This document shows positions 20,915 through 31,880 of a stretch of DNA of 57,872 nucleotides, one piece after another. Both the position numbers and the translations under genes were made by a program. Position 1 is the stretch's first letter. Every line of letters starts with the position of its first letter. The notes under the pieces are model-generated. The model had not been told where the DNA came from. It did no database searches and worked only from the letters and a program-made list of their open reading frames with translations. The DNA comes from Candidatus Bathyarchaeia archaeon (GTDB taxonomy: Archaea > Thermoproteota > Bathyarchaeia > Bathyarchaeales > Bathycorpusculaceae), in the NCBI GenBank assembly GCA_050010515.1, contig JBEKKX010000015.1:1-57872 (forward strand), read 5' to 3'.

Positions 20915-21508
20915 TTAGATTATGTCGATTGGTTCTCCCTTAGGCTTGGTTTCCGCCTCAGCTTTGGGAAGCACCACTTCTAAGACGCCGTTTTTGTAGC
21001 TTGAGTTTGCTTCTTTAACCTTCACTTTTACTGGCAACTCAACTTCCTTATAGTACTTGTACTGCGCAGTATCAACCGAAATCGTCAGCGAATCTTCGGT
21101 GCCGTGAAGTTTAATGTCGCCTTTTTCTACGCCTGGAAGCTCCACAACCACATGGACTTCACCGTTTGTTTCAACAATGTCAACGAGTGGTTCGCGTTCG
21201 TCTTTAACCTGCGGTGCCCCTTTGAGGCCTTTTTTGATGTTTCCAAACTCTTGAATTTCAGGCTTGCCGTCTGGACCAATCTTCATGCTGTAACCGTAAA
21301 CGAAGGGTCCAAGCTCCTTAACTGTGCTGCCGTCAGGCAGTTTGCGCTCCTTAACATACTCTTTAGGCACTTTTTCAGTGAAATTTTTTAGTTCTTCATC
21401 CATCATTTTTTCCATTTCACGGAACATGTCATCTATGTCACCGAAAAACGGTTCTTTAGCCCGTTTCTTCCTTGACCATTCAGGGTAATCCTCATTATCA
21501 GAAGACAT
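20915..21508 (-). CDS. hsp20: Archaeal small heat-shock protein Hsp20
   Basis: GPFVYGYS, EPLVDI, ELPGVEK and YKNGVLEV motifs. Confidence 0.92.
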   Translation of the reverse strand: MSSDNEDYPEWSRKKRAKEPFFGDIDDMFREMEKMMDEELKNFTEKVPKEYVKERKLPDGSTVKELGPFVYGYSMKIGPDGKPEIQEFGNIKKGLKGAPQVKDEREPLVDIVETNGEVHVVVELPGVEKGDIKLHGTEDSLTISVDTAQYKYYKEVELPVKVKVKEANSSYKNGVLEVVLPKAEAETKPKGEPIDII

Positions 21509-21710
21509 ATAGCACTCACCACACTACCTTGCGTTTTCCACTCCAATAAATTTTATGTTACAAAAAATGCTTATTTTATGGTGCTGACAGGCACTTTTCA
21601 AGTGGCTGCTCTGTTGAATGTGACACAACCAAATCGTATTGGTACCTTTAAAAGTTTAAATGATGGAAAACAAACTAAATGGAATCAGCCAGCAAAAAAA
21701 GTGGCAATTT

Positions 21711-21785
21711 GCCGGGGTAGCCTAGCCTGGCTAGGGCGCCAGACTCATAATCTGGTTTTCGAGGGTTCAAATCCCTCTCTCGGCA
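21711..21785 (+). tRNA. Elongator tRNA-Met(CAT), hybrid of host 5' half and element-supplied intronless 3' half (attL)
   Basis: GCCGGGG/TCTCGGC acceptor, CCAGA-CTCATAA-TCTGG anticodon arm and GAGGG-TTCAAAT-CCCTC T arm. G1-C72 argues against initiator. Confidence 0.88.
21740..21755 (+). repeat. attL core (16 bp CAGACTCATAATCTGG)
   Basis: Perfect direct repeat with 31433-31448. Confidence 0.92.
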
Positions 21786-21836
21786 CTAAACAACCGCAAT
21801 TCGCAAAAGAAACCCAAATTAAGCCGCTAATTCAAC

Positions 21837-21848
21837 ATGGTAAACAAT
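21837..21848 (+). repeat. ATGGTAAACAAT arm-type repeat (P' side)
   Basis: Identical copies at 31367 and 31391; 11/12 match at 23175. Confidence 0.6.
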
Positions 21849-21903
21849 TAACAGCAACAGCAAACGCTTTATTCTATGCCATATTAAATGAAGGTGTTCA
21901 AGC

Positions 21904-22761
21904 ATGACCGAAAATGAAGACGTATTTGCTAACTTATTCACCGATTGGATGTTAAACGAAAAAGACCCAAAAAGAAAAGTTAATGCTAAAGTTGCTCATG
22001 AGTATGCAAGAATAGCACACAAATTTACTTCATATGCTAAATTATCTGGGCTATTCAGTAGTGACCCAGAACAGCGAAAAGCTATGATTCAAGGTAAAGT
22101 TAAGGAATTCTTAGACATCGAGAACCCTCATAGCTACAGAAACAACTTAGCCGCACTAAAAAAACTGTTTCAGTTTATCGGTGAAGACGAAGTTATGGCA
22201 GATTTCAAGTACAAGGCAATCATGCCAACATTCAGCATTAAAACCCCAGACCTAAAAGATATGGTAACATTCGGAAAAGCAATACAGAACGAAAGAATCC
22301 AAGTTTACTATTATCTTGGAGTCGTTAGCGCAATCAGACCTGAACACCTTTTGAGATTGACCGTTAAACTCTTTGACACAAAAAACAACATGATAAACAC
22401 CTTCATGAAGACTTTCGGCAAAAAGAATTTCTTCTTTAGCTTCTATACCCCAGAGATTAAGCCATTGATTGAGCAATACATAAGCACAATTCCAGATAAC
22501 GAATTGCTGTTTCCAATTGGCTCACGATACATAATTAAGGAATTTGAAAAAACAAGTAAACAATGCGGAATAAAGATAACTCCAAAAATGATGCGTAAAT
22601 TCTCAACAAATTGGTTAAGAAGACATGGCATGATAAGCGAAGACGTTGACGTTATAACCTCTCATGTGCCTAAATCTGTAGTTGCAAAAAACTATCTTGA
22701 TGTCTCACGCATACATGAAGAATATGACCGAGCAATGACCGACTTAAAACTCGGTCTCTAA
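21904..22761 (+). CDS. int: Tyrosine recombinase/integrase
   Basis: Catalytic R (SAIRPEH), K-x-x-R (KMMRK), H (ITSH) and Y (KNYL); lies next to attL. Confidence 0.88.
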   Translation: MTENEDVFANLFTDWMLNEKDPKRKVNAKVAHEYARIAHKFTSYAKLSGLFSSDPEQRKAMIQGKVKEFLDIENPHSYRNNLAALKKLFQFIGEDEVMADFKYKAIMPTFSIKTPDLKDMVTFGKAIQNERIQVYYYLGVVSAIRPEHLLRLTVKLFDTKNNMINTFMKTFGKKNFFFSFYTPEIKPLIEQYISTIPDNELLFPIGSRYIIKEFEKTSKQCGIKITPKMMRKFSTNWLRRHGMISEDVDVITSHVPKSVVAKNYLDVSRIHEEYDRAMTDLKLGL

Positions 22762-22787
22762 AACCCCTTCTTTTATTAAGTTTTTTT

Positions 22788-23024
22788 TTAAGATTCATCC
22801 ATTTCCTTTCTTCTTTTGACAAACTTATCTTTGTAAATAAAACCATATGCTATGAAAAACACAGCCGCACCATATAATAAGTAGCTATATGGTGCGTAGA
22901 TAAAACGTAATTGCGCTCCAGCTATAAGAAACGCTCCACCTAAAGCAATGCAACCCAGAAACAGACCAAGCCATATCTGAACGTCAGTTTGAATCCTTGC
23001 AAATCTCTTTTCTTCATCATTCAT
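22788..23024 (-). CDS. Small 2-TM membrane protein (element)
   Basis: 78 aa, two hydrophobic helices and a basic tail. Confidence 0.65.
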   Translation of the reverse strand: MNDEEKRFARIQTDVQIWLGLFLGCIALGGAFLIAGAQLRFIYAPYSYLLYGAAVFFIAYGFIYKDKFVKRRKEMDES

Positions 23025-23147
23025 AATTGCATCATATACATAAGTTACTTATCAATTTTTTTGAGTAGCTTCTACACAACACTAACATAATCAGTTAAAT
23101 ATACCCATAAAATACAGTCTTTTATCTATTATACATGTTACATAACG

Positions 23148-23378
23148 AAGACGCTTAATTATATTGGTTAATAATTGGTAAACAATCACCTGACTAATTG
23201 TCTGTCGAGTGTTTACCATTAACTTAAATGTGCGGGAGCGGCTAAAGCATGGACAAATTAGTTGTGTTTTTGACTCAAAGACACATTTTACAACTACTCC
23301 CCTACCTGTTACTGTACAACACAACTACAATTGGCAAGCTCCCCATCAAAAAAATAGACATATAGAATTAAGCGTCTT
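23148..23378. other. Structured intergenic segment closed by a 13-bp inverted repeat
   Basis: aagacgcttaatt (23148) / aattaagcgtctt (23366). Internal stems tggtaaaca/tgtttacca, gggag/ctccc and tagttgt/acaacta. Confidence 0.55.
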
Positions 23379-23395
23379 ATTGGTTAAGTTATTGC

Positions 23396-23965
23396 TTAAC
23401 TATTGTTTTGCCTATTGTGGCGAACTTTAACCCATGATTTGCCACAACTACGACATCGCCACTGTTCGCCTTTACTTATTACTGTGTCACAACCGCACTC
23501 TATACATAATGGTCTTTGTGGCTTAATTGTTGGTTGGCTTGTCTCCATGACACATGCCGACTTTTCACTTTCAAAACCTTCATATTGTAATGGATATGCT
23601 TGATTCCATAATTGCTTTAAAAATTGGTAATTGGCTAATAGTGCACTATATGATTCTGTGTTGTTCAAGTTATTTTGTTCGTAAACATAGCCTATGTGAC
23701 ACAAAAGGCTTAGATAAGTTTCATAGCCTAAACTGTCACTAATAAATGAAGTGATAAAATCCCGTATGCTTTCTTTTTGGGGTTCGTCTAAAATTAAATA
23801 TTGTTCTGGAATTGTTAGTTGACTCCAATCGTATCCATAAATTGTTTTCTTGCGTTGTTTTTCGTGCAATTCAAAAAATCTCTCTTCATTAATATGGGTT
23901 TTATCTATCGTTACCATATCGTAAAGTTTATCCCTTAACCAATAAACTAAATTATTTTGGTACAT
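23396..23965 (-). CDS. Hypothetical protein with C-terminal Zn ribbon (element)
   Basis: CIECG...WRCRSCG motif; GGTGA SD. Confidence 0.7.
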   Translation of the reverse strand: MYQNNLVYWLRDKLYDMVTIDKTHINEERFFELHEKQRKKTIYGYDWSQLTIPEQYLILDEPQKESIRDFITSFISDSLGYETYLSLLCHIGYVYEQNNLNNTESYSALLANYQFLKQLWNQAYPLQYEGFESEKSACVMETSQPTIKPQRPLCIECGCDTVISKGEQWRCRSCGKSWVKVRHNRQNNS

Positions 23966-24049
23966 TTAATCATCACCTTTTAGTATTTGCTTTCTTCTAA
24001 CTTTGTTGCGTTTCTTTTGGCTTTTAAAGCACATAAAGTATAAACGCAT
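23966..24049 (-). CDS. Possible 27-aa basic peptide filling the operon gap
   Basis: MRLYFMCFKSQKKRNKVRRKQILKGDD, with TAAATG junctions on both sides. Confidence 0.35.
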   Translation of the reverse strand: MRLYFMCFKSQKKRNKVRRKQILKGDD

Positions 24050-24373
24050 TTACACCAAATCCTTACAATTTTCGTTTTGGTTTGGGCTAACTTTAATCAA
24101 TGCAGAGTCAAGCAATTTTTGCCTACGTTCACTAAAACGCTGCAAATCGAAATTTAAAGCGCATGTTTCATTGCAAAAGCGTGAGCCTCTATTTTTTGTT
24201 AATTCTGCCTTGCAAAACAAGCAAAAAAAGTTATTTTTATTTCGCTTCCTCAAACTGCTTCTACAAGTTTCACAGTAAAAAAAAGGGTGACACTGCTTAT
24301 GGCAAGTTTGCTTAAACAATTCACCGCATTTTTTGCACGTTTTTTCAACTGTTTTTGACATTTTGTACCTCAC
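24050..24373 (-). CDS. Cys-rich multi-zinc-finger protein (element)
   Basis: CKKC, CETC, CLFC and FCNETC motifs. Confidence 0.65.
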   Translation of the reverse strand: MRYKMSKTVEKTCKKCGELFKQTCHKQCHPFFYCETCRSSLRKRNKNNFFCLFCKAELTKNRGSRFCNETCALNFDLQRFSERRQKLLDSALIKVSPNQNENCKDLV

Positions 24374-24566
24374 TTATTGGTTTAGCGATTAATGTTGATT
24401 CGACTTTTGCAAACCGTTGTTGTTTCCAAATTAAGTAATATTCACGTCGATGTGCTTTATTATGTTCAAAATAATTCCTTTCCTGACAATGGTAGGTGCA
24501 AAACTTTTGGAAATTGCATTTAGGCATAAACCATTTGCCACAGTTTTTGCAAACTTTGTTTTTCAT
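24345..24566 (-). CDS. Small zinc-finger protein (element)
   Basis: CKNCG...FCTYHC; GGTGA SD. Confidence 0.65.
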   Translation of the reverse strand: MKNKVCKNCGKWFMPKCNFQKFCTYHCQERNYFEHNKAHRREYYLIWKQQRFAKVESTLIAKPISEVQNVKNS

Positions 24567-24706
24567 TTTAAGTCACCTTATGTAAGTATGTAATTTGACC
24601 CAGAGATTGCAAGGGAAAACATGGGTAAACCCTTGCATATTGGTGAGATTCTCTGGGTTTTTTTGACGCATATATAGAGTTGGTTTTTGTAAGCATAATT
24701 AACCAC

Positions 24707-25300
24707 TTATGAAACGTTAAACGTGTTGCTGTTTGATGGGATACCGCCGCCTCTGCATTGAATGTGTGTCGAACTTGTTGCGGCATGAACCACGACTTCA
24801 CCAGTCCAAACGCCATGCATAAATTGGATAAAGGGAGGGTCGGTTAACCGTTGATTTGGGATTGTTCCAGCAATCGTTATCAAAGTCGAAACTATGCCAC
24901 ACATCGCATTAAAATCATCTCTCCCATCTTTTCCATTAAGCACATTGCCGTTTGAATCACACGCTGAAATTGAAACGGGAAAAGACACTTCGTGAGTTTG
25001 GTCGCTAATATTTGTAAACGTGAAGTGGTCAACGTTGTAGAAATCGTTAGCGGCGACTCCACTTCTAATTTGAATGGCAAAAAGCATCGAATCGTAAAAT
25101 ACGTCTGAACACACAGTATAAGTTATTGGTGGGATTTGTCCACTGTATAAAATAAATGTTAAGTTGTCAGGGTTTAAAATGTATGCATTGGCAATTACAT
25201 TAAAGCTTAAAATGCTGTCAGCGATGACATCATAAACGATAAATTTCGTGTGACCCTCAATTTCGCTTGGTTGCACATTAACAGTTAAGTAAGTAGCCAT
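24707..25300 (-). CDS. Hypothetical beta-rich protein (candidate structural protein)
   Basis: 197 aa rich in V/I/T/N/F with few Lys; SD AAGGCG upstream. Confidence 0.65.
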   Translation of the reverse strand: MATYLTVNVQPSEIEGHTKFIVYDVIADSILSFNVIANAYILNPDNLTFILYSGQIPPITYTVCSDVFYDSMLFAIQIRSGVAANDFYNVDHFTFTNISDQTHEVSFPVSISACDSNGNVLNGKDGRDDFNAMCGIVSTLITIAGTIPNQRLTDPPFIQFMHGVWTGEVVVHAATSSTHIQCRGGGIPSNSNTFNVS

Positions 25301-25314
25301 TTTTTAATCGCCTT

Positions 25315-25911
25315 TTATGATGGATTATTAATGAATTTTGACACGTTTGTTCTGAAAACATCGCCTTCTATAGCATCGGTTTCAACAGCATCATAGAAAT
25401 AACCCGTTTGCTTCGATAGTTCGTTTGCTTCTTGTGCGGTTATCAATTCAGGTTCAAATTTTTCAACTATGCAATAGTCGCAATCGTTTAGTGGCAGACT
25501 TGTGATAAAGCCTTTATTTATGTCTCGCAAATAATATTTGTTAATTGCAACTAATTCGCCTTGAATGTTCATTTTACTGTCGTTGAATGTTATGTAAAGA
25601 AAAGCGTTATCAGGATTATCTTTTATTGTTGCTGTAACCTTTTGCTTAAAGAATAACTTTTCAATTAAACCACGTTTCTTTAATGAAGGCACAGTGTCGT
25701 ATGTGAGAATGTAGAATGTTGCTGTTTTAGTTAATCCTCTTTGTTCTGGAGATTCCCATGTAGTTATAGGCTCACTTTTTATCCATATACCTTTAGCCTT
25801 ATTGAATTTGCTTGTGGTTGTCACTGTTCGCATGTCAATTTTTGTTTTACCTTCGACTAAATGAACTGCCCAAAACGATGATGATTCGATTTTATCGTAA
25901 ATTTTACTCAT
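25315..25911 (-). CDS. Hypothetical protein (element)
   Basis: 198-aa ORF in a tightly packed operon. Confidence 0.7.
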   Translation of the reverse strand: MSKIYDKIESSSFWAVHLVEGKTKIDMRTVTTTSKFNKAKGIWIKSEPITTWESPEQRGLTKTATFYILTYDTVPSLKKRGLIEKLFFKQKVTATIKDNPDNAFLYITFNDSKMNIQGELVAINKYYLRDINKGFITSLPLNDCDYCIVEKFEPELITAQEANELSKQTGYFYDAVETDAIEGDVFRTNVSKFINNPS

Positions 25912-25912
25912 T

Positions 25913-26536
25913 TTAATCTTTCACCTTAATTTTCATTTCTAATTTCTTTTGCAACTTACGCTTTTGAAATGCTTCTTGCGTTTCGCCTTGTGGGTTTTCT
26001 GTACCTATGCGTTTAGGTGAACGCCACGCTGATAAAAGACTCATTTTACCCGTTTGTGGGTTTAAAGTAGGTTCAAACTCTATATCAAATTTATCGCTTT
26101 TCAAACTCTTTTTAGCGACTTTACCCAATTGATTTTTAAGTTCTGGGTCATTTTTAGCCATTTCGTTAATTGCCAAAATTGCTTGCTCTGCCGTGTCATA
26201 TTCCCCTTCTTTATTTTGTTCGTTATTTTGGCTAAAAATTGACGCTTTGTTATGTTCAAGTTCATAATCCCGAACAGCTTCTAAAGTTGACGCACATCCA
26301 TATTTTGCTGACTTTTCTTTAAGTCTCTGTTCAGCAATTATGTTTAAGTCGCCTTTCAATTCTTCGACTTCACTCTGCAAATTATCTCTCTCACTTTTTA
26401 GGTCTTCGTTGGCTAATTTGGTGTCTTCGCTCTCACTAAGCATTTTCTTTAATTTGCCAATTGCTTCTTTATCACCCGTTATTTTTACCTTTACATTTTC
26501 AATATTTTGTTTAACCTCAATTTCGTCATCACTCAT
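25913..26536 (-). CDS. Coiled-coil protein (element)
   Basis: Heptad-like LANEDLKSERDNLQSEVEELKGDL segment. Confidence 0.7.
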   Translation of the reverse strand: MSDDEIEVKQNIENVKVKITGDKEAIGKLKKMLSESEDTKLANEDLKSERDNLQSEVEELKGDLNIIAEQRLKEKSAKYGCASTLEAVRDYELEHNKASIFSQNNEQNKEGEYDTAEQAILAINEMAKNDPELKNQLGKVAKKSLKSDKFDIEFEPTLNPQTGKMSLLSAWRSPKRIGTENPQGETQEAFQKRKLQKKLEMKIKVKD

Positions 26537-26539
26537 TTT

Positions 26540-26776
26540 TTAACCTTCTATTTTTATGTTTTTGTTAGGGTTTTTTGAACAAACAGTGACATCCCCTAAC
26601 GAAATGCCATTATTTTCTTTTTTAACTTCGACTTTCCAACAGACCAACTGCTTATCATAACTAAGGCACACGCATGATTTTTTATTGCATTCTGGGTTTT
26701 GCGGTCTAAGAGATGTGCCTTTTGGTATCGGAATAGCAATATCTTTACCGTTGACATTCACGATTATTTTTGGCAT
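26540..26776 (-). CDS. Hypothetical Cys-containing protein (element)
   Basis: 78-aa ORF abutting its neighbours. Confidence 0.6.
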   Translation of the reverse strand: MPKIIVNVNGKDIAIPIPKGTSLRPQNPECNKKSCVCLSYDKQLVCWKVEVKKENNGISLGDVTVCSKNPNKNIKIEG

Positions 26777-27148
26777 TTATGCGCCTCTGTGACCGTCACG
26801 TATGTCTTCTTTACCTACACTTTTTGGCAAACCACTGCTTTTTTGACCCGTCACGACAGAACTTGATATTACTTCGTGTTCCTTGCAAAAACGACTCATT
26901 TCACTAAATTTAATACTGTCTGAATTTCCAGCTTTAAGTTGTGGTGCAATTTTGCCTTCACTTTCAACTGTGTAAACGTCTGGATTTGCTGGGTCATTTG
27001 ATAATTCACGGACATCAACGTCATTAACCGATGATTTTAAAGTTTCTTTATCGCCTATCAACGCAATATTTGCATCCATATAGCCCTTTAATCCAGACTT
27101 ATTATGTGCCGCATTATCGCCTTGATTTTGTTTTTGTTCATCAACCAT
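26777..27148 (-). CDS. Hypothetical protein (element)
   Basis: 123-aa ORF; GGAG SD. Confidence 0.65.
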   Translation of the reverse strand: MVDEQKQNQGDNAAHNKSGLKGYMDANIALIGDKETLKSSVNDVDVRELSNDPANPDVYTVESEGKIAPQLKAGNSDSIKFSEMSRFCKEHEVISSSVVTGQKSSGLPKSVGKEDIRDGHRGA

Positions 27149-27150
27149 AT

Positions 27151-27384
27151 TTATTTTTCATCTCCTTTTTTACTTAATTTTTGCGCTTCGTGGTTGAAAT
27201 CGCCAATCGGTTCTTCTATGCGATTAGCCATTTTTTGATTAATTGTAACCGTTTGCGAATAACTGATTTCTTGACTCATTAAATCCCTAAGTAAATCTGA
27301 TTGGTCTTTGTTGGTTGCAACTGCCAATTCCCTAAAACTTTCGGCTACATTCTCTTCTATATGCAACATTTTACGTTTAGTCAT
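27151..27384 (-). CDS. Ribbon-helix-helix (CopG-like) DNA-binding protein
   Basis: RKMLHIEENVAESFRELAVATNKDQSDLLRDLM pattern; first gene of the leftward operon. Confidence 0.65.
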   Translation of the reverse strand: MTKRKMLHIEENVAESFRELAVATNKDQSDLLRDLMSQEISYSQTVTINQKMANRIEEPIGDFNHEAQKLSKKGDEK

Positions 27385-27821
27385 TAATTATCACAGTGTT
27401 ATAGTCTAACAAACTACTATATAAATGTTTTTATTACAATTAACAATATTAATTAATGTTAAAATTACATAATTACTTAAGTAAAGTTGTAAAAACTACA
27501 ATAAAACCATAACATTTAAATATAACGCTGTTATAATTATTATTGTTAACTACTGCCATTGTTAACGCCTTTGTTTCGGGTGTGGTTCTGGGTTACCCAC
27601 ATAAGCAAAAAACCCTTTTCGCTAATATGTCTTTTAGCGTACATATATCTTTTTTAGATATGTACGTTTTTCGACCCTTACAACTTTTTTGTTATTAAAC
27701 AACAAGTGTTAAAGTGCAACCAAAAGATTTAAAAAGGCTAAACTACACTTTATAAGTGTAAGTTTCATTTGAAACAAAGCAGTTAAATAATTGCTTAAAT
27801 CAAAACAAAGGATATGAAAAA
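27385..27821. promoter_or_regulatory. Divergent AT-rich control region of the element with several short hairpins
   Basis: TATA-like boxes on both strands; hairpins such as cgtacatatatct/agatatgtacg and acactt/aagtgt. Confidence 0.5.
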
Positions 27822-28253
27822 ATGGCACAAGAAACATTAACTACACAAATTAAAATTATTGATAATAGACAACGCTCTGCACGATACGCTAAACGAAACA
27901 AATTAAAGATAAAGTGCCGAATAGAAGCACGAAAATATCCGTTAAATGAATGTTGCGAATTTTGTGGTTCAACCGAACACTTAGAGAGGGCGCATTTTAA
28001 CTACAATATCCCAGAACTGTTCATTACTGCTTGCAAACAATGCCATAAGTGGTGTGACCGCAAACACGCAAGCACCTACAAAGGCGACAGACGACTCACA
28101 TTAAAACAAGCCCGACAGTTCGCATATCATTTAGGCACATATGACAAGTATTTTGACATGCAAGGTCAACCATTAGACAAATCCATGTATAAACAACTTA
28201 AACCCATAAGAGTTTACGAAGGCGATAAATTAGTGGAAGTGAGATATGAGTAA
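27822..28253 (+). CDS. HNH-like endonuclease
   Basis: CEFCGSTEHLERAH...ITACKQCH motif. Confidence 0.7.
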   Translation: MAQETLTTQIKIIDNRQRSARYAKRNKLKIKCRIEARKYPLNECCEFCGSTEHLERAHFNYNIPELFITACKQCHKWCDRKHASTYKGDRRLTLKQARQFAYHLGTYDKYFDMQGQPLDKSMYKQLKPIRVYEGDKLVEVRYE

Positions 28254-28474
28254 GTTTAGTTAAGTAATTGTTTAATTGGTTAACTTGGCGAAAAGCGCAA
28301 AAATTGAGCTTATCCCTGAACTTACTATGGTCTGAGTTCCGTGTATTCTGCCATGTGCGTCACACGGCAAACCTATCAACCATATCACGCATTCACGCCT
28401 AAGCAATCAATCCAAGCACTAACTAACCAACAAACAGATTAACCAACTAATAACAAACAACTTAACTAAACTTA
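28251..28474. other. Rod-like structured segment closed by a 15-bp perfect inverted repeat
   Basis: taagtttagttaagt (28251) / acttaactaaactta (28460). Inner stems ttggttaa/ttaaccaa, cttgg/ccaag, tatggt/accata and ccgtgt/acacgg. Confidence 0.6.
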
Positions 28475-28696
28475 ACCATAATAATAATAACAAAATAACT
28501 AACAAAACTATACTTTATTTTTTTATTTATTAGGTTGACACACTAAAATAGGAAGGCAATTAAGTTATTGTTTAAATAAACTAACTACCGCTATATTATA
28601 ATATTTTAACTCATGTAATAACAAATAAATAGCTGTATGGATATAAGGGGTAAAGTATATATATAAGTTTTAGGTGTCGTAATTCTTGATATATGT

Positions 28697-29557
28697 ATGC
28701 CGATGCCAAAATATAAAAAGAAATCGTTAATTCAAATACCAATTATTCAACAGTTTATTAAGAATTATGACATAGTTAGCATTAGGCAAATATTTTATCA
28801 TTTAGTTATAAATCAAATTATCAAAAATGAACTTAAAAGTTATGAAATGGTTGATATGTTAGTAAATAATATGCGCTATGATAAGTTAATACCCTTCGAT
28901 TCAATTAGCGATATTACTAATAAATATGGTTCACCAACCTATAAAAATATTAATGAAGAAATAGAAGTAGTTTTAGAAAATTATCGTAGTAAATGGAATA
29001 ATTATTTTGATGATTATGTCGAAGTTTGGCTTGAAAAAGAAGCTTTATCAAATACAGTTTATCCCATAACTAACTTTTATGGAATTTATTTAAGAGTTAG
29101 CGGCGGCAGAACGAAAGTTAGTCAGGTTCACAGTTTTATTAATGATGCTAATTATTATGATGCGCCGACTACGATACTTTATTTAGGTGATTTTGACCCG
29201 ACAGGCTTAAACATAGATGAAAATTTAGAAAAGCAAATCCTCAAGCAAAAAGAATATATCCACTTTCCAGAACCCGTAAAGATAATCAGGTTAGCATTAA
29301 CAGAATCACAAACTAAGTTTTTGCCTAATAAATACCAACTTGCAAAACCCAAAGATGCCAATTCTAAAAAGTATATTGCGAAATACGGCAATAAAGTTTG
29401 GGAGTTAGATGCTTTAGACCCCAAAGAGTTACAACAAATCGTTAAGGATGTTCTTGAAAGTTACCGTCCAACAACAGACATTAATGACCTAATAGCTGAC
29501 GATAAAGACGAAGTTAAAAATATACGGGATAAAATAGGTTATAGTATTCCCCGTTAA
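28697..29557 (+). CDS. TopoVI-A/Spo11-like WHD-Toprim protein
   Basis: SIRQIFY (candidate catalytic Tyr), WLEKEA, YLGDFDPTG and WELDAL motifs. Confidence 0.75.
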   Translation: MPMPKYKKKSLIQIPIIQQFIKNYDIVSIRQIFYHLVINQIIKNELKSYEMVDMLVNNMRYDKLIPFDSISDITNKYGSPTYKNINEEIEVVLENYRSKWNNYFDDYVEVWLEKEALSNTVYPITNFYGIYLRVSGGRTKVSQVHSFINDANYYDAPTTILYLGDFDPTGLNIDENLEKQILKQKEYIHFPEPVKIIRLALTESQTKFLPNKYQLAKPKDANSKKYIAKYGNKVWELDALDPKELQQIVKDVLESYRPTTDINDLIADDKDEVKNIRDKIGYSIPR

Positions 29558-29578
29558 ATATACCTCTACCCTTATGCG

Positions 29579-29791
29579 TTTTTGACTTTTAATAATTTAG
29601 CCAATTTTAAACAAGGCTTGAGTTAAACGGTTATTAATGTTATTTGGAATTCTGCAAGAATCTTGCTGAAAACCAATCAAAAAACCCTAATAATTGCCGT
29701 TAATTGCCAATAAATAAAACCCTAAACTAAACGAATTATCCAATACTGGACAATTAGCCAGATTAAATTTAGGTTTAGGTTAAGTCAAAAA
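29579..29791. other. Third IR-closed intergenic segment
   Basis: tttttgactt (29579) / aagtcaaaaa (29782); inner cctaaac/gtttagg stem. Confidence 0.4.
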
Positions 29792-29987
29792 ATGCCTATG
29801 TGCAAAAGTGCCAAAAATTGACTAAAACGGGGCTTAAAACGGGCTTATTTTACCATTTAACTGTACAACAAGTCGCCGTTTCGCAAAATAGTTAAGGAAA
29901 AACGCTTAAATACCCTTTCGCCTTCTAATCTGCCACCTATTACAGGTTTAAAAACAAAAAAAAACAAAAAAGGTGATAAAACAAAAA

Positions 29988-31100
29988 ATGACAGAAAAAC
30001 AAAACACAAACAATGTATCTATCCAAAGCAGTTTCACAGTGCAAAACCTAATTGACGATATGAAAAAATGTTTAGGCTTTATAGTGTCGGCAGAGAGCGG
30101 AAGCGGTAAAAGCTATTTGGGATTCACGATTTGCAGAGAAGCAATGAAGGCAGAGAACAAAACAAGGATAATTATATTTTCGCCCAGCACAATCTATAAC
30201 CGCAAATTCGGCAGTTGTGACAATCTAAAGCTAATCAAGGTTGGCACGGCAGACTTTAGCCCCGTTGTTGACTACGATAAAGAAATGTTGGAAAGAGTAG
30301 CCAATGTTAGAGACACATTCTTTTTGAACACAGACAAGAAATACATGTTCAAGCGTTCATTATGGCTTGAGCAGTTGTTAGCCAATGACTCATTAAACCT
30401 CTGTTTTGAAATACATTACCTTAACTCACGGAAAGCTAAAACCTTCATTACCGAATGCTTAAAGCTGATTTTTGAGAGAGAACGAAAGAAACTTGAGCGA
30501 AACCCCGATTACGACTTTCACACTTTAGCTGTATTAGAAGAATGCCAAAATTCTTATGGCACGTATAATCTCAATGACGACTCAAGCCTTGAGGCTCTCG
30601 GAATCCTATCTATGGCTCGGACAGACTGCAACTTGCACTTTTTAGCTATAACTCAGAGATTGGCAGAGACAAGCGTTAAGGTGACTGAGCGGTTAAGGCT
30701 AATTTCGGGTCTCCAAATCGGCTATAATAATTTGAATCGTGTTAGGGCGCAAATAACCCCAGAACTGAGAGAATTAGTGCAGAGATTGCCACAAAAAACT
30801 TTCCTATACATCAACGGCAAAGATAACCCTATTTTCCAGATTCCGCAATACAGCTTTAAAGGCAAAATGACACAGATTAGACCAATGACACAACCGACAG
30901 AACAACCAAAAAAGAAAGATGGTTTTATTAAACAAATGAAACAATTGTTAAAGGCAATGTTTAGCGTGCCACAGCAATATCAACCACAAACACAGCAAAA
31001 CAATAATGAAGAGCAAAATAATGATGATATAGAGCAATCACAAGCCGATGGATTAATGACCGATGATTCCGACATAATGTTTCCAGAGGATGAATACTAA
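29988..31100 (+). CDS. P-loop ATPase of the HerA/FtsK superfamily (possible packaging or DNA-pumping ATPase)
   Basis: Walker A AESGSGKS, Walker B AVLEEC, R in SMART, sensor AITQRL; acidic Gln-rich tail. Confidence 0.75.
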   Translation: MTEKQNTNNVSIQSSFTVQNLIDDMKKCLGFIVSAESGSGKSYLGFTICREAMKAENKTRIIIFSPSTIYNRKFGSCDNLKLIKVGTADFSPVVDYDKEMLERVANVRDTFFLNTDKKYMFKRSLWLEQLLANDSLNLCFEIHYLNSRKAKTFITECLKLIFERERKKLERNPDYDFHTLAVLEECQNSYGTYNLNDDSSLEALGILSMARTDCNLHFLAITQRLAETSVKVTERLRLISGLQIGYNNLNRVRAQITPELRELVQRLPQKTFLYINGKDNPIFQIPQYSFKGKMTQIRPMTQPTEQPKKKDGFIKQMKQLLKAMFSVPQQYQPQTQQNNNEEQNNDDIEQSQADGLMTDDSDIMFPEDEY

Positions 31101-31198
31101 ATGATGGCAAACGATAATATTCTCTCAGTTAAAACGGGTTCTGAGAGTGAAATGAACGGACAAAAACCCAACAAAAATAAAAGGATGCGATAAAAAAA

Positions 31199-31448
31199 AT
31201 GATGGTAAAATGTCCAACATGCGGTATTAATGGTTCGGCACAAATTAGAGGTAATAGCGTAAGAGTCGGTCACTATGTCGGTTACAAAGGCGACACAAGA
31301 ATAGTTAATTGGCATTGCACAACCTTAGAAGATTTGAGCAAATTAAACAACTGCTTAAAAATCAATATGGTAAACAATAACGGTCACAAAATGGTAAACA
31401 ATGAACAGTTATCCATTGATTACCATGCGCCTCAGACTCATAATCTGG
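31199..31448 (+). CDS. N-terminal part of a Zn-ribbon ORF split by att (133 aa on the excised circle, joined to 21756-21907)
   Basis: CPTCG...GH...WH. QTHNL is read in the same frame at both att sites. Confidence 0.65.
31367..31402 (+). repeat. Two ATGGTAAACAAT arm-type repeats (P side)
   Basis: 31367-31378 and 31391-31402, identical to 21837-21848. Confidence 0.6.
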
Positions 31449-31533
31449 AGAACATAAATGGTGGCCAAACGCTCCTGTCCAGAAGTCGCGGGCTCGAAGC
31501 TAGAAAAAAGCGAGAATCCCGCTCCCGGCACCA
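31433..31533 (+). tRNA. attR: displaced 3' half of host tRNA-Met with two BHB introns (31451-31484 at 45/46; 31499-31516 at 59/60)
   Basis: BHB1 CTGG-AGA-ACA...TGT-CCAG-AAG; BHB2 CTCG-AAG-CT...AG-CGAG-AAT. Splicing gives AGGTC-GCGGG-CTCGAAT-CCCGC-TCCCGGC-A-CCA. Confidence 0.88.
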
Positions 31534-31880
31534 CTTATTTTTGATGCTTATGCCTAATTTTTGTGGCGAATTCCGTCAACAAATAGTAGGGTACCCCTCT
31601 GGGTAATGCTGGAAAACTCTGTTTTGGGTTGCTTTTTTGATTTGAAGCTTGAATCAGGCTTAGTCACCACTGACTTCCTTAAGCTGTATATAAAGCGCCG
31701 TGGAAAGGGAATAGAGTGACTAAACATGCAGGCAAAATTGCTGAGCGAATTAATTACCATTTGATCTCTTGCTGGAGTTTGACTGGTTATTTTGAAAGGC
31801 TGGCGTTTAGGCTTACTTTAATTTTGGAAACTGAAAGAAATTTAAGTGCGTTTAGTAGCTCACTAATTAGGTGTAATTTA

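Follow-up and report, generated by a model that had tools for sequence, protein, structure and literature searches.

What becomes of an integrase when an archaeal element inserts itself through an attachment site that lies within coding sequence? This question is raised by a stretch of 57,872 nucleotides (nt) from a Candidatus Bathyarchaeia archaeon (assembly GCA_050010515.1, contig JBEKKX010000015.1, positions 1 to 57,872; hereafter the window), which holds an element of 9,693 bp (21756-31448, one copy of the attachment core counted) integrated in a tRNA-Met gene. An earlier note, made from the letters of the window, had proposed that the attachment site of the free element (attP) lies inside a zinc-ribbon gene coupled to the integrase gene (int), and that a partner protein is split there while the recombinase stays whole. 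Our analysis indicates that an SSV-type integrase gene has probably evolved into two translationally coupled genes, an open reading frame (ORF) that we call ORF1 and int, and that integration cuts only the first of them. The anatomy of the two genes, the conservation of their layout, their origin from a single chain and the cutting of ORF1 only are the solid part of this reading.

Both copies of the attachment core are translated as QTHNL in the same frame, one in ORF 31199-31606 and the other in ORF 21578-21907. Circular joining of 31199-31448 to 21756-21907 by script gave 402 nt, made of 133 sense codons and a TGA stop. The two remaining frames were full of stops, and 16 out of 200,000 shuffles of the joined 399 nt stayed open. 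The TGA stop (21905-21907) shares two nucleotides with the start codon (21904-21906) of the integrase ORF 21904-22761, the four letters being ATGA. The core copy at 31433-31448 sits inside the zinc-ribbon-bearing N-terminal part of ORF1, and the 3' half of the tRNA that the element brings along is coding as well, being contained in the C-terminal part (21756-21907). On all of these points the earlier note was right. In the integrated state ORF1 is cut in two and the integrase ORF is uncut. The chimeric ORF then found at the right end (31199-31606) consists of the N-part of ORF1 and 52 host-coded residues, without the tail helix. A P-loop nucleoside triphosphatase gene precedes ORF1 on the same strand.

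We are confident that the overlap is not an artefact of the assembly. An identical ATGA junction was present in four metagenome contigs whose integrase is 100% identical (L001, L002, L003 and L010), one of them, L003, having a host flank somewhat unlike that of the window, and contigs of runs X6 and X9 that span 21900-21910 had no differing letter listed. An integrase profile retrieved 23 loci, 20 of which include the junction region (L018, L019 and L020 begin inside int). The ATGA overlap was present in 12 of the 20 (L001-L008, L010, L021-L023), while in seven (L009, L011-L016) the integrase was in one continuous frame with a tRNA-coded or linker peptide before it. The last one, L017, showed an in-frame TAG, then 3 nt, then ATG, and a truncated integrase. 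Of the 15 entries examined for an ATGA with the ORF1 stop at +1, 13 showed it; the other two are L017, with its TAG junction, and L018, whose contig begins inside int. The ATGA junctions comprise seven distinct sequences (window type, L004, L005 type, L007, L008, L022 and L023) with integrase identities to the window of 61-100%. A GAAGG(T)G-like box stood 7-8 nt before the ATG in 7/7 of them, matching GGAGGTG, which we take to be the Shine-Dalgarno (SD) consensus, at 5-6 of its 7 positions. Int was intact in the window, L004, L005, L007 and L008.

The frame across the attachment core was open in homologous elements too, as the earlier note had expected. This was seen directly in L004, a contig of 2,775 nt with an unsplit ORF1 of 161 codons, the ATGA and an intact integrase of 281 residues. 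In integrated copies the N-part of ORF1 lay at the far end of the element, about 10 kb away in genome G001 and about 5 kb away in G002. Joined virtually at the same core, G002 yields an open ORF1 that ends in ATGA. For G001 both halves read QTHNL in frame, and the frame would be lost if the joint were placed in the T arm, at a longer shared stretch of 25 nt. A class-wide genome search had matches in 4 of 401 genomes at E<=1e-30, with no new two-gene copies among them. The two-gene ATGA layout is a real conserved arrangement and not an indel.

ORF1 behaves as a protein at both of its ends. The tail motif LF[Y/F/N]xI[L/I]x[E/N]G was kept in eight sequences with changes mostly at third positions, and the pooled ratio of nonsynonymous to synonymous differences per site (pN/pS) in the tail was, over 28 pairs, 0.25 in the ORF1 frame versus 0.74 and 1.32 in the two others. 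For the zinc-ribbon end, pS was 0.47 and pN 0.06 between the window and L004, and 0.60 and 0.10, respectively, between L024 and L025. An exhaustive protein search with the 83-residue N-part found 84 relatives at E<=1e-3, mostly 60-200 residues long and continuing into peptides coded by various tRNAs; a word-indexed search among proteins of near length returned only the window's own chimeric ORF. Residues C5, C8, H25 and H39 (Cys-Cys-His-His, CCHH) were invariant in 41 aligned N-part sequences. AlphaFold2 predicted four strands and a helix for residues 1-50 (31199-31348), with a predicted local distance difference test (pLDDT) of 83-93, and disorder for residues 51-83. By these comparisons of sequence, ORF1 is a protein-coding gene kept under purifying selection. 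Pfam gave a sub-threshold match to PF22415 (E=0.021) and nothing else on the ORF1 pieces, and PHROGs gave no match for the ORF1 of L004. Three large proteins, P0047 (1430 residues), P0071 (1004) and P0124 (966), contain 5-12 tandem stretches that resemble the hairpin region of the zinc ribbon.

The integrase itself matched PF16795 (Phage_integr_3) with 28.1 bits (cut-off 27.0, E=2.2e-6), PF00589 with 29.7 bits (cut-off 27.1) and phrog_5127 (E=2.5e-18); PF16795 is also the precomputed assignment of most of its homologues. R145, K228, R231 and Y264 were invariant in 35 sequences and make up the signature R...KxxR...Y. This is the signature of type I (SSV-type) integrases, that of pNOB8 being R...YxxR...Y (PMC8371274). 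In a profile search, the segment KyfRKF of SSV1 Int (3vcf) aligned with the KxxRKF block and its tyrosine with Y264, a weak match (E=0.12), and the integrase profile matched XerA (5hxy) with E=7.9e-5. The AlphaFold2 model of a sister protein, P0005, matched the archaeal XerA structures 4a8e and 5hxy (E=5e-7 to 1e-6), Brujita Int and lambda Int. A phmmer search of Int against the PDB sequences had no matches at E<=1.

Where ORF1 comes from is revealed by relatives in which it is no separate gene. P0009 (386 residues) and P0021 (380 residues) carry the same zinc ribbon, followed by an attachment-site-coded stretch and the integrase, in one frame, a kind of fusion that the earlier note had proposed to look for. 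In P0005, P0014 and P0044, tRNA-Met is read in frame into the integrase, and three distant genomic relatives are likewise single-frame. In an IQ-TREE phylogeny of 44 rows (without locus duplicates, P0001 with its 98% identity to the window, and six unlabelled proteins below 240 residues), the eight two-gene rows verified on DNA, seven proteins starting with MTxxxD and L018 formed one clan (support 100/99). All 23 single-frame rows fell outside it, its nearest neighbours being P0003, P0005 and P0044. The tree is rooted at its midpoint only; we took the polarity from the single-chain state common to all other clades. In the model of P0005, residues 1-52 (the tRNA-coded stretch and repeats) are disordered and a helix 76-86 directly precedes a helix 91-105. 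In a by-eye alignment, the initiator methionine of the window's Int falls on M86 and the ORF1 tail on the position of helix 76-86.

Because these relatives run in a single frame from a zinc-ribbon or tRNA-coded peptide into the integrase, ORF1 is the detached N-terminal module of the integrase and not an unrelated partner. The earlier note had spoken of a separate upstream partner. This stands insofar as ORF1 is an ORF of its own and is split, and fails insofar as it is homologous to the N-terminal module of P0009 and P0021. Its claim that the recombinase stays whole likewise applies to the core-binding and catalytic part; the N-module is cut by integration. The attachment site lies inside the integrase's own ORF in P0009, P0021, P0005, L009 and L011-L016, and does not in the clan of the window. 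Judged from PF16795, the R...KxxR...Y signature, the two-domain fold and the single-chain sister clades, the window holds a gene-fission derivative of an SSV-type ("suicidal") integrase.

The attP region also contains repeats. The word ATGGTAAACAAT occurs seven times in the window with at most one mismatch, versus 0.53 expected, and none of 100 shuffles reached seven; six of the seven copies lie in the element and one outside it. Within ORF1 this word encodes MVNN in the left arm and [N/H]GKQ in the right, and both readings recur in relatives, so it is the DNA and not the peptide that is conserved. Zinc ribbons reading GYTQIRKxYARIAHY (L024, L025, P0060) go with another word, ATTGATAAC, read as VIN or IDN, and these elements likewise have an inverted pair 3' of int. 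An analogous layout of repeats was found in L004, L007, L009 and L011 and, with ATTGATAAC, in L005, L017 and L021-L025. Over the family, different zinc-ribbon variants pair with different repeats, and 39 of the 60 members with enough linker had a tripeptide repeated within 40 residues after the domain, versus 16% of shuffles. This suggests that the repeats are arm-type sites that change together with the zinc-ribbon sequence. In each element, two copies of its own arm repeat in inverted orientation, about 30 nt apart, lie a few hundred bases downstream of int (window 23175-23219, L004 1657/1689, L008 1090/1122, L011 4083/4115, L005 1428/1458, L022 4239/4269). From its sequence this pair resembles an operator that the zinc-ribbon domain would bind as well.

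The element (34.5% G+C versus 42.6-43.6% in the flanks) is bounded by the 16-nt core CAGACTCATAATCTGG, which has two exact copies on the + strand of the window and none on the - strand. Identical 16-mers are not rare here, 92 window positions repeating an earlier one. We built the boundaries and the attachment-site assignment on the empty site, since the 16-nt repeat is by itself weak evidence. In a genome of the same genus, G007 (L028), both flanks recur and enclose one uninterrupted, intron-bearing tRNA-Met gene, and in run X19 a contig passes directly from 21755 to 31456, with a depth of 75 there and of 0-5 over the element. In the tRNA-Met(CAT) gene of the window (21711-21786), the attL core copy sits in the anticodon arm, the 5' part is that of the host and the 3' part, from 21756 on, is supplied by the element and intron-less. 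No circular attP joint of the window's element was listed among the contigs of four runs, which is uninformative, as contigs break at the shared core.

Some further observations concern the element and its host site. The runs that hold the sequence are labelled as peat and wetland metagenomes. In the peat runs X15 and X19, contig depth was 64-240 in the left flank (21400-21746), 19-36 in the right flank (31463-31800) and 0-9 in the element (21747-31462). Empty-site contigs occur in these runs, and the element seems to be absent from most of the population, contig depth being a poor measure. The native tRNA-Met gene of the host is interrupted by two non-canonical introns, the first following the anticodon stem and the second lying in the T loop (window 31449-31533; also L028 at about 1440-1625 and L034 at about 1430-1580), and relative G021 has the first of the two only. 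Integration converts this intron-bearing gene into a plain tRNA gene, as read by ARAGORN and Rfam. The same tRNA-Met is occupied by another element of the two-gene clan, L017, in a host with an L003-like flank, and the element of the window itself was found behind two slightly different host flanks (window; L003 203-607), so the site has been used repeatedly. To the right of the element, a 36-nt stretch (31620-31655) that occurs once in the window has many dispersed matches in genomes of the same genus and may be a small dispersed repeat; a 652-nt query had 22 matches in G019, 17 in G007 and 17 in G016, most of the listed ones being this stretch. Inside the element, ORF 22788-23024 (- strand, 78 residues, no PHROG match) has two long hydrophobic stretches with a short turn between them, a shape reported for capsid proteins of spindle-shaped viruses (PMC10848311), and the element might be a small spindle-type provirus. 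ORF 28697-29557 (+ strand, 286 residues) matched phrog_6247 "DNA topoisomerase" (E=8.7e-41) and, weakly, DUF2399 in Pfam. Among IMG/VR viral contigs, 570 pattern matches were obtained and none was confirmed as a relative. The coordinates of the features are collected in Table 1.

Table 1. Features of the two-gene integrase and its attachment sites in the window
Feature	Position	Strand	Remark
Chimeric tRNA-Met(CAT)	21711-21786	+	ARAGORN; Rfam tRNA, 62.6 bits
attL core copy	21740-21755	+	exact repeat
C-part of ORF1 including stop	21756-21907	+	through element-borne tRNA 3' half to tail helix LFYAILNEG
Repeat ATGGTAAACAAT, right arm	21837-21848	+	other frame (HGKQL)
Shine-Dalgarno-like box GAAGGTG	21890-21896	+	7 nt 5' of int ATG
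ATGA stop/start overlap of ORF1 and int	21904-21907	+	seen in 13/15 entries examined
Integrase, 285 residues	21904-22761	+	core-binding and catalytic domains, intact when integrated
Inverted pair of ATGGTAAACAAT downstream of int	23175-23186, 23208-23219	+, -	candidate operator
N-part of ORF1, 83 codons	31199-31448	+	zinc-ribbon-like domain, disordered linker with repeats and core
Chimeric ORF of the integrated state, 135 residues	31199-31606	+	ORF list; P0046
Repeat ATGGTAAACAAT	31367-31378	+	read as MVNN
Repeat ATGGTAAACAAT	31391-31402	+	read as MVNN
Inverted repeat copy	31415-31426	-	1 mismatch, 6 nt from core, read as IDYH
attR core copy	31433-31448	+	exact repeat
Displaced native 3' part of tRNA-Met	31449-31533	+	contiguous with 5' half in G007

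How would such a divided integrase work? Both proteins would be made, Int by reinitiation or by SD-driven initiation at the ATGA. The tail helix of ORF1 would lie on the N-terminal helices of Int and rebuild the ancestral enzyme as a heterodimer. The zinc-ribbon domain would bind the 12-nt repeats in both attP arms as an arm-type contact, and ORF1 would tether Int to them via its tail helix. Upon integration, the zinc-ribbon part would go to the right end of the prophage, and the tail helix together with Int to the left end behind the host tRNA gene. The integrated Int would retain its SD-like box and ATG, yet be without its targeting and assembly subunit; it could come from read-through of the tRNA transcript, which has been considered for int(C) of pTN3 (PMC8371274). 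Intact ORF1 from an episomal or related element would then set the direction of the reaction. In its full form, a two-subunit integrase whose small subunit, with attP in its own gene, is the directionality factor and could trigger excision when supplied in trans, this mechanism is a possibility that we put forward tentatively and with some doubt.

Contact between the two proteins was addressed by complex prediction with Int of L004 and residues 113-161 of its ORF1. The score was 0.75, versus 0.00 for the best of three controls, a mark attained by 58 of 80 complexes of known structure and by 2 of 110 mismatched pairs, which is a rough gauge with own alignments used. The runs agreed in at least 68% of contacts, with a partner pLDDT of 51 or more. 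The predicted interface joins ORF1 residues 143-159, the conserved tail, to Int residues 2-15, 38-43 and 87-90. From this model we infer that the tail helix of ORF1 may dock on the N-terminus of Int.

A number of points weigh against the picture of two coupled genes acting together. The pLDDT of the docked partner was low, 52-56. The docking score may also reflect learned intramolecular packing of recombinase N-domains, since the partners are halves of a split gene and the solved XerA structures 5hxy and 4a8e resemble Int. Int(N) and Int(C) of IntSSV2 are reported not to interact in solution (PMC8371274). Between its two ends, ORF1 shows little conservation and is predicted to be disordered. 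For the zinc-ribbon model, Foldseek returned nothing at E<=0.001 (all E>1) and VIA no significant match (best Z 3.7), and in neither was there a likeness to the arm-binding domain of lambda Int. Tied rows of VIA included SH3/Tudor/KOW-like barrels and PSV ORF131 (2x5c, Z 3.3, 28% identity). We infer the putative DNA binding of the zinc ribbon from the repeats and not from any fold match. L004 is the sole unsplit ORF1 of the two-gene clan that was seen directly, and a tandem array would produce the same junction. The sequence GGAGGTG may not be the SD consensus of this host, and no 16S ribosomal RNA gene was found in the window's own genome, a metagenome-assembled genome of 98.5% completeness. 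No RNA runs were listed among the 22 runs that hold the sequence. Finally, Int is broken by frameshift or truncation in L022 (3001-3811), L023 (3001-3817), L017 (1034-1618) and L018 (13-799), and some of the conserved junctions are in decaying copies. L022 and L023 retain the ATGA despite their broken Int.

The alternative that survives best assumes that ORF1 is made and does not assemble with Int, its sole role being that of a DNA-binding regulator or directionality factor, such as a repressor at 23175-23219, with Int working alone. The inverted repeat pairs downstream of int in several elements would fit such a role. So would the missing interaction of the SSV2 parts just mentioned, and the weak activity that Int(C) of SSV1 and SSV2 keep by themselves (PMC8371274). 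On the other hand, the conserved tail helix adjoins the start of Int and matches the position of the N-domain helix in single-chain relatives, docking was predicted with a clear difference from the controls, and the ATGA coupling favors co-translation. We consider this alternative unlikely.

A second possibility is a programmed -1 frameshift at the overlap, as in IS3-type elements, which would yield a single-chain integrase and leave the separate products as by-products or regulators. The ancestral state was one chain, and overlapping ORFs in a -1 relation are the usual setting of frameshifting. A slippery heptamer X_XXY_YYZ at a place where both frames are open was, however, found in none of the seven junctions. 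Five had no heptamer at all, and the AAATTTA of L022 and L023 occurs only where the Int frame is closed. An Int-frame stop lay 1-5 codons 5' of the ATG in six of the seven. The TAG and 3 nt of L017 would moreover need a different recoding, a weak point as it is one degraded copy. As there is no slippery heptamer of that kind and the Int frame is closed upstream, we read the junction as termination-reinitiation or SD-driven coupling, and frameshifting is quite improbable.

The two remaining explanations can be dealt with briefly. One is that an ordinary single-chain SSV-type integrase gene acquired the ATGA by a frameshift mutation or through a sequencing error, so that the element is dead. This might be suspected from the single-chain relatives and from the decay of some integrated copies, but it is hardly credible in view of a junction identical in four independent contigs and the run contigs and kept in seven distinct sequences of one clan, of purifying selection on both sides of it, of the conserved SD-like box and of the five intact Int. 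That the frame is open by chance or through constraint on the DNA, without any ORF1 protein, has just as little probability: the linker is indeed constrained as DNA (tRNA 3' half, repeats in two frames), but few shuffles stay open, pN is lower than pS at either end, in no other frame than that of ORF1, the 84-member zinc-ribbon family has its invariant C, C, H and H, and the frame is kept in L004, G001 and G002.

The reading as a divided SSV-type integrase can be placed among known systems. With the type I integrases of SSV1 and SSV2, the window shares PF16795, the R...KxxR...Y signature and an attachment site that lies in a tRNA gene within the coding sequence of the integrase module, and its sister clades are single chains cut by the attachment site. 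It differs in that the attP-bearing N-module is a separate ORF with its own stop, in that the catalytic ORF has its own SD-like box and ATG and is uninterrupted by integration, and in that the N-module consists of a CCHH zinc-ribbon-like domain followed by repeats; zinc is not mentioned in the available parts of the review PMC8371274. In pTN3 and pT26-2 of Thermococcales (PMC7253208), the attachment site is also translated inside the gene, the histories of Int(N) and Int(C) are separable and the frame across the site can differ among relatives. Frameshifts there are, however, local, and compensated or inactivating. The passages of this paper covered here contain neither a conserved stop/start overlap nor the terms "two ORFs" or "zinc". 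Like pNOB8 (type II), the window keeps its integrase ORF intact after integration; pNOB8 has R...YxxR...Y where K228 is invariant in the window, and an attachment site outside the integrase-module genes.

Parallels outside this family are looser. As in lambda Int/Xis, non-core repeats stand in both attP arms, the layout implies a separate small N-terminal DNA-binding module, and the direction of the reaction could depend on a small protein. Lambda has its arm-binding domain within Int itself and an unrelated protein as Xis, whereas the putative arm-binding module of the window is a polypeptide of its own, whose gene contains attP. Small co-transcribed proteins that modulate integration are also known from the SNJ2 integrase with Orf2 and Orf3 (Wang et al. 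2018, as cited in the review), but these are not reported there as homologues of integrase N-domains or as carriers of attP. In the literature searched, which includes accessible text of PMC8371274, PMC7253208, PMC10848311 and PMC6563490 and excludes supplements and subscription journals, we found neither a two-gene SSV-type integrase nor a zinc-ribbon N-module described. What is new with respect to suicidal integrases is a conserved stop/start junction that separates the attP-bearing N-module and spares the catalytic ORF.

In conclusion, the two-gene clan is a natural experiment, in which the N-module is already separated at a domain boundary and both pieces are under selection. What the halves of suicidal integrases do after integration, and what the N-part is for, is left open in the available text of PMC8371274. 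Because evolution has separated the N-module from the catalytic part and kept both, the two pieces should be expressible as native proteins. The clan is a hint that archaeal integrases may use arm-type sites and a zinc ribbon that binds to them, neither of which is named in the parts of the literature covered here. One and the same stretch of DNA serves as recombination site, part of a tRNA gene, candidate binding repeats and coding sequence. If the proposed mechanism is true, the only subunit lost on integration is the one for targeting and assembly, the catalytic subunit being left complete and translatable behind the promoter of a host tRNA gene, and a subunit of 130-160 residues would be the directionality factor of the element.

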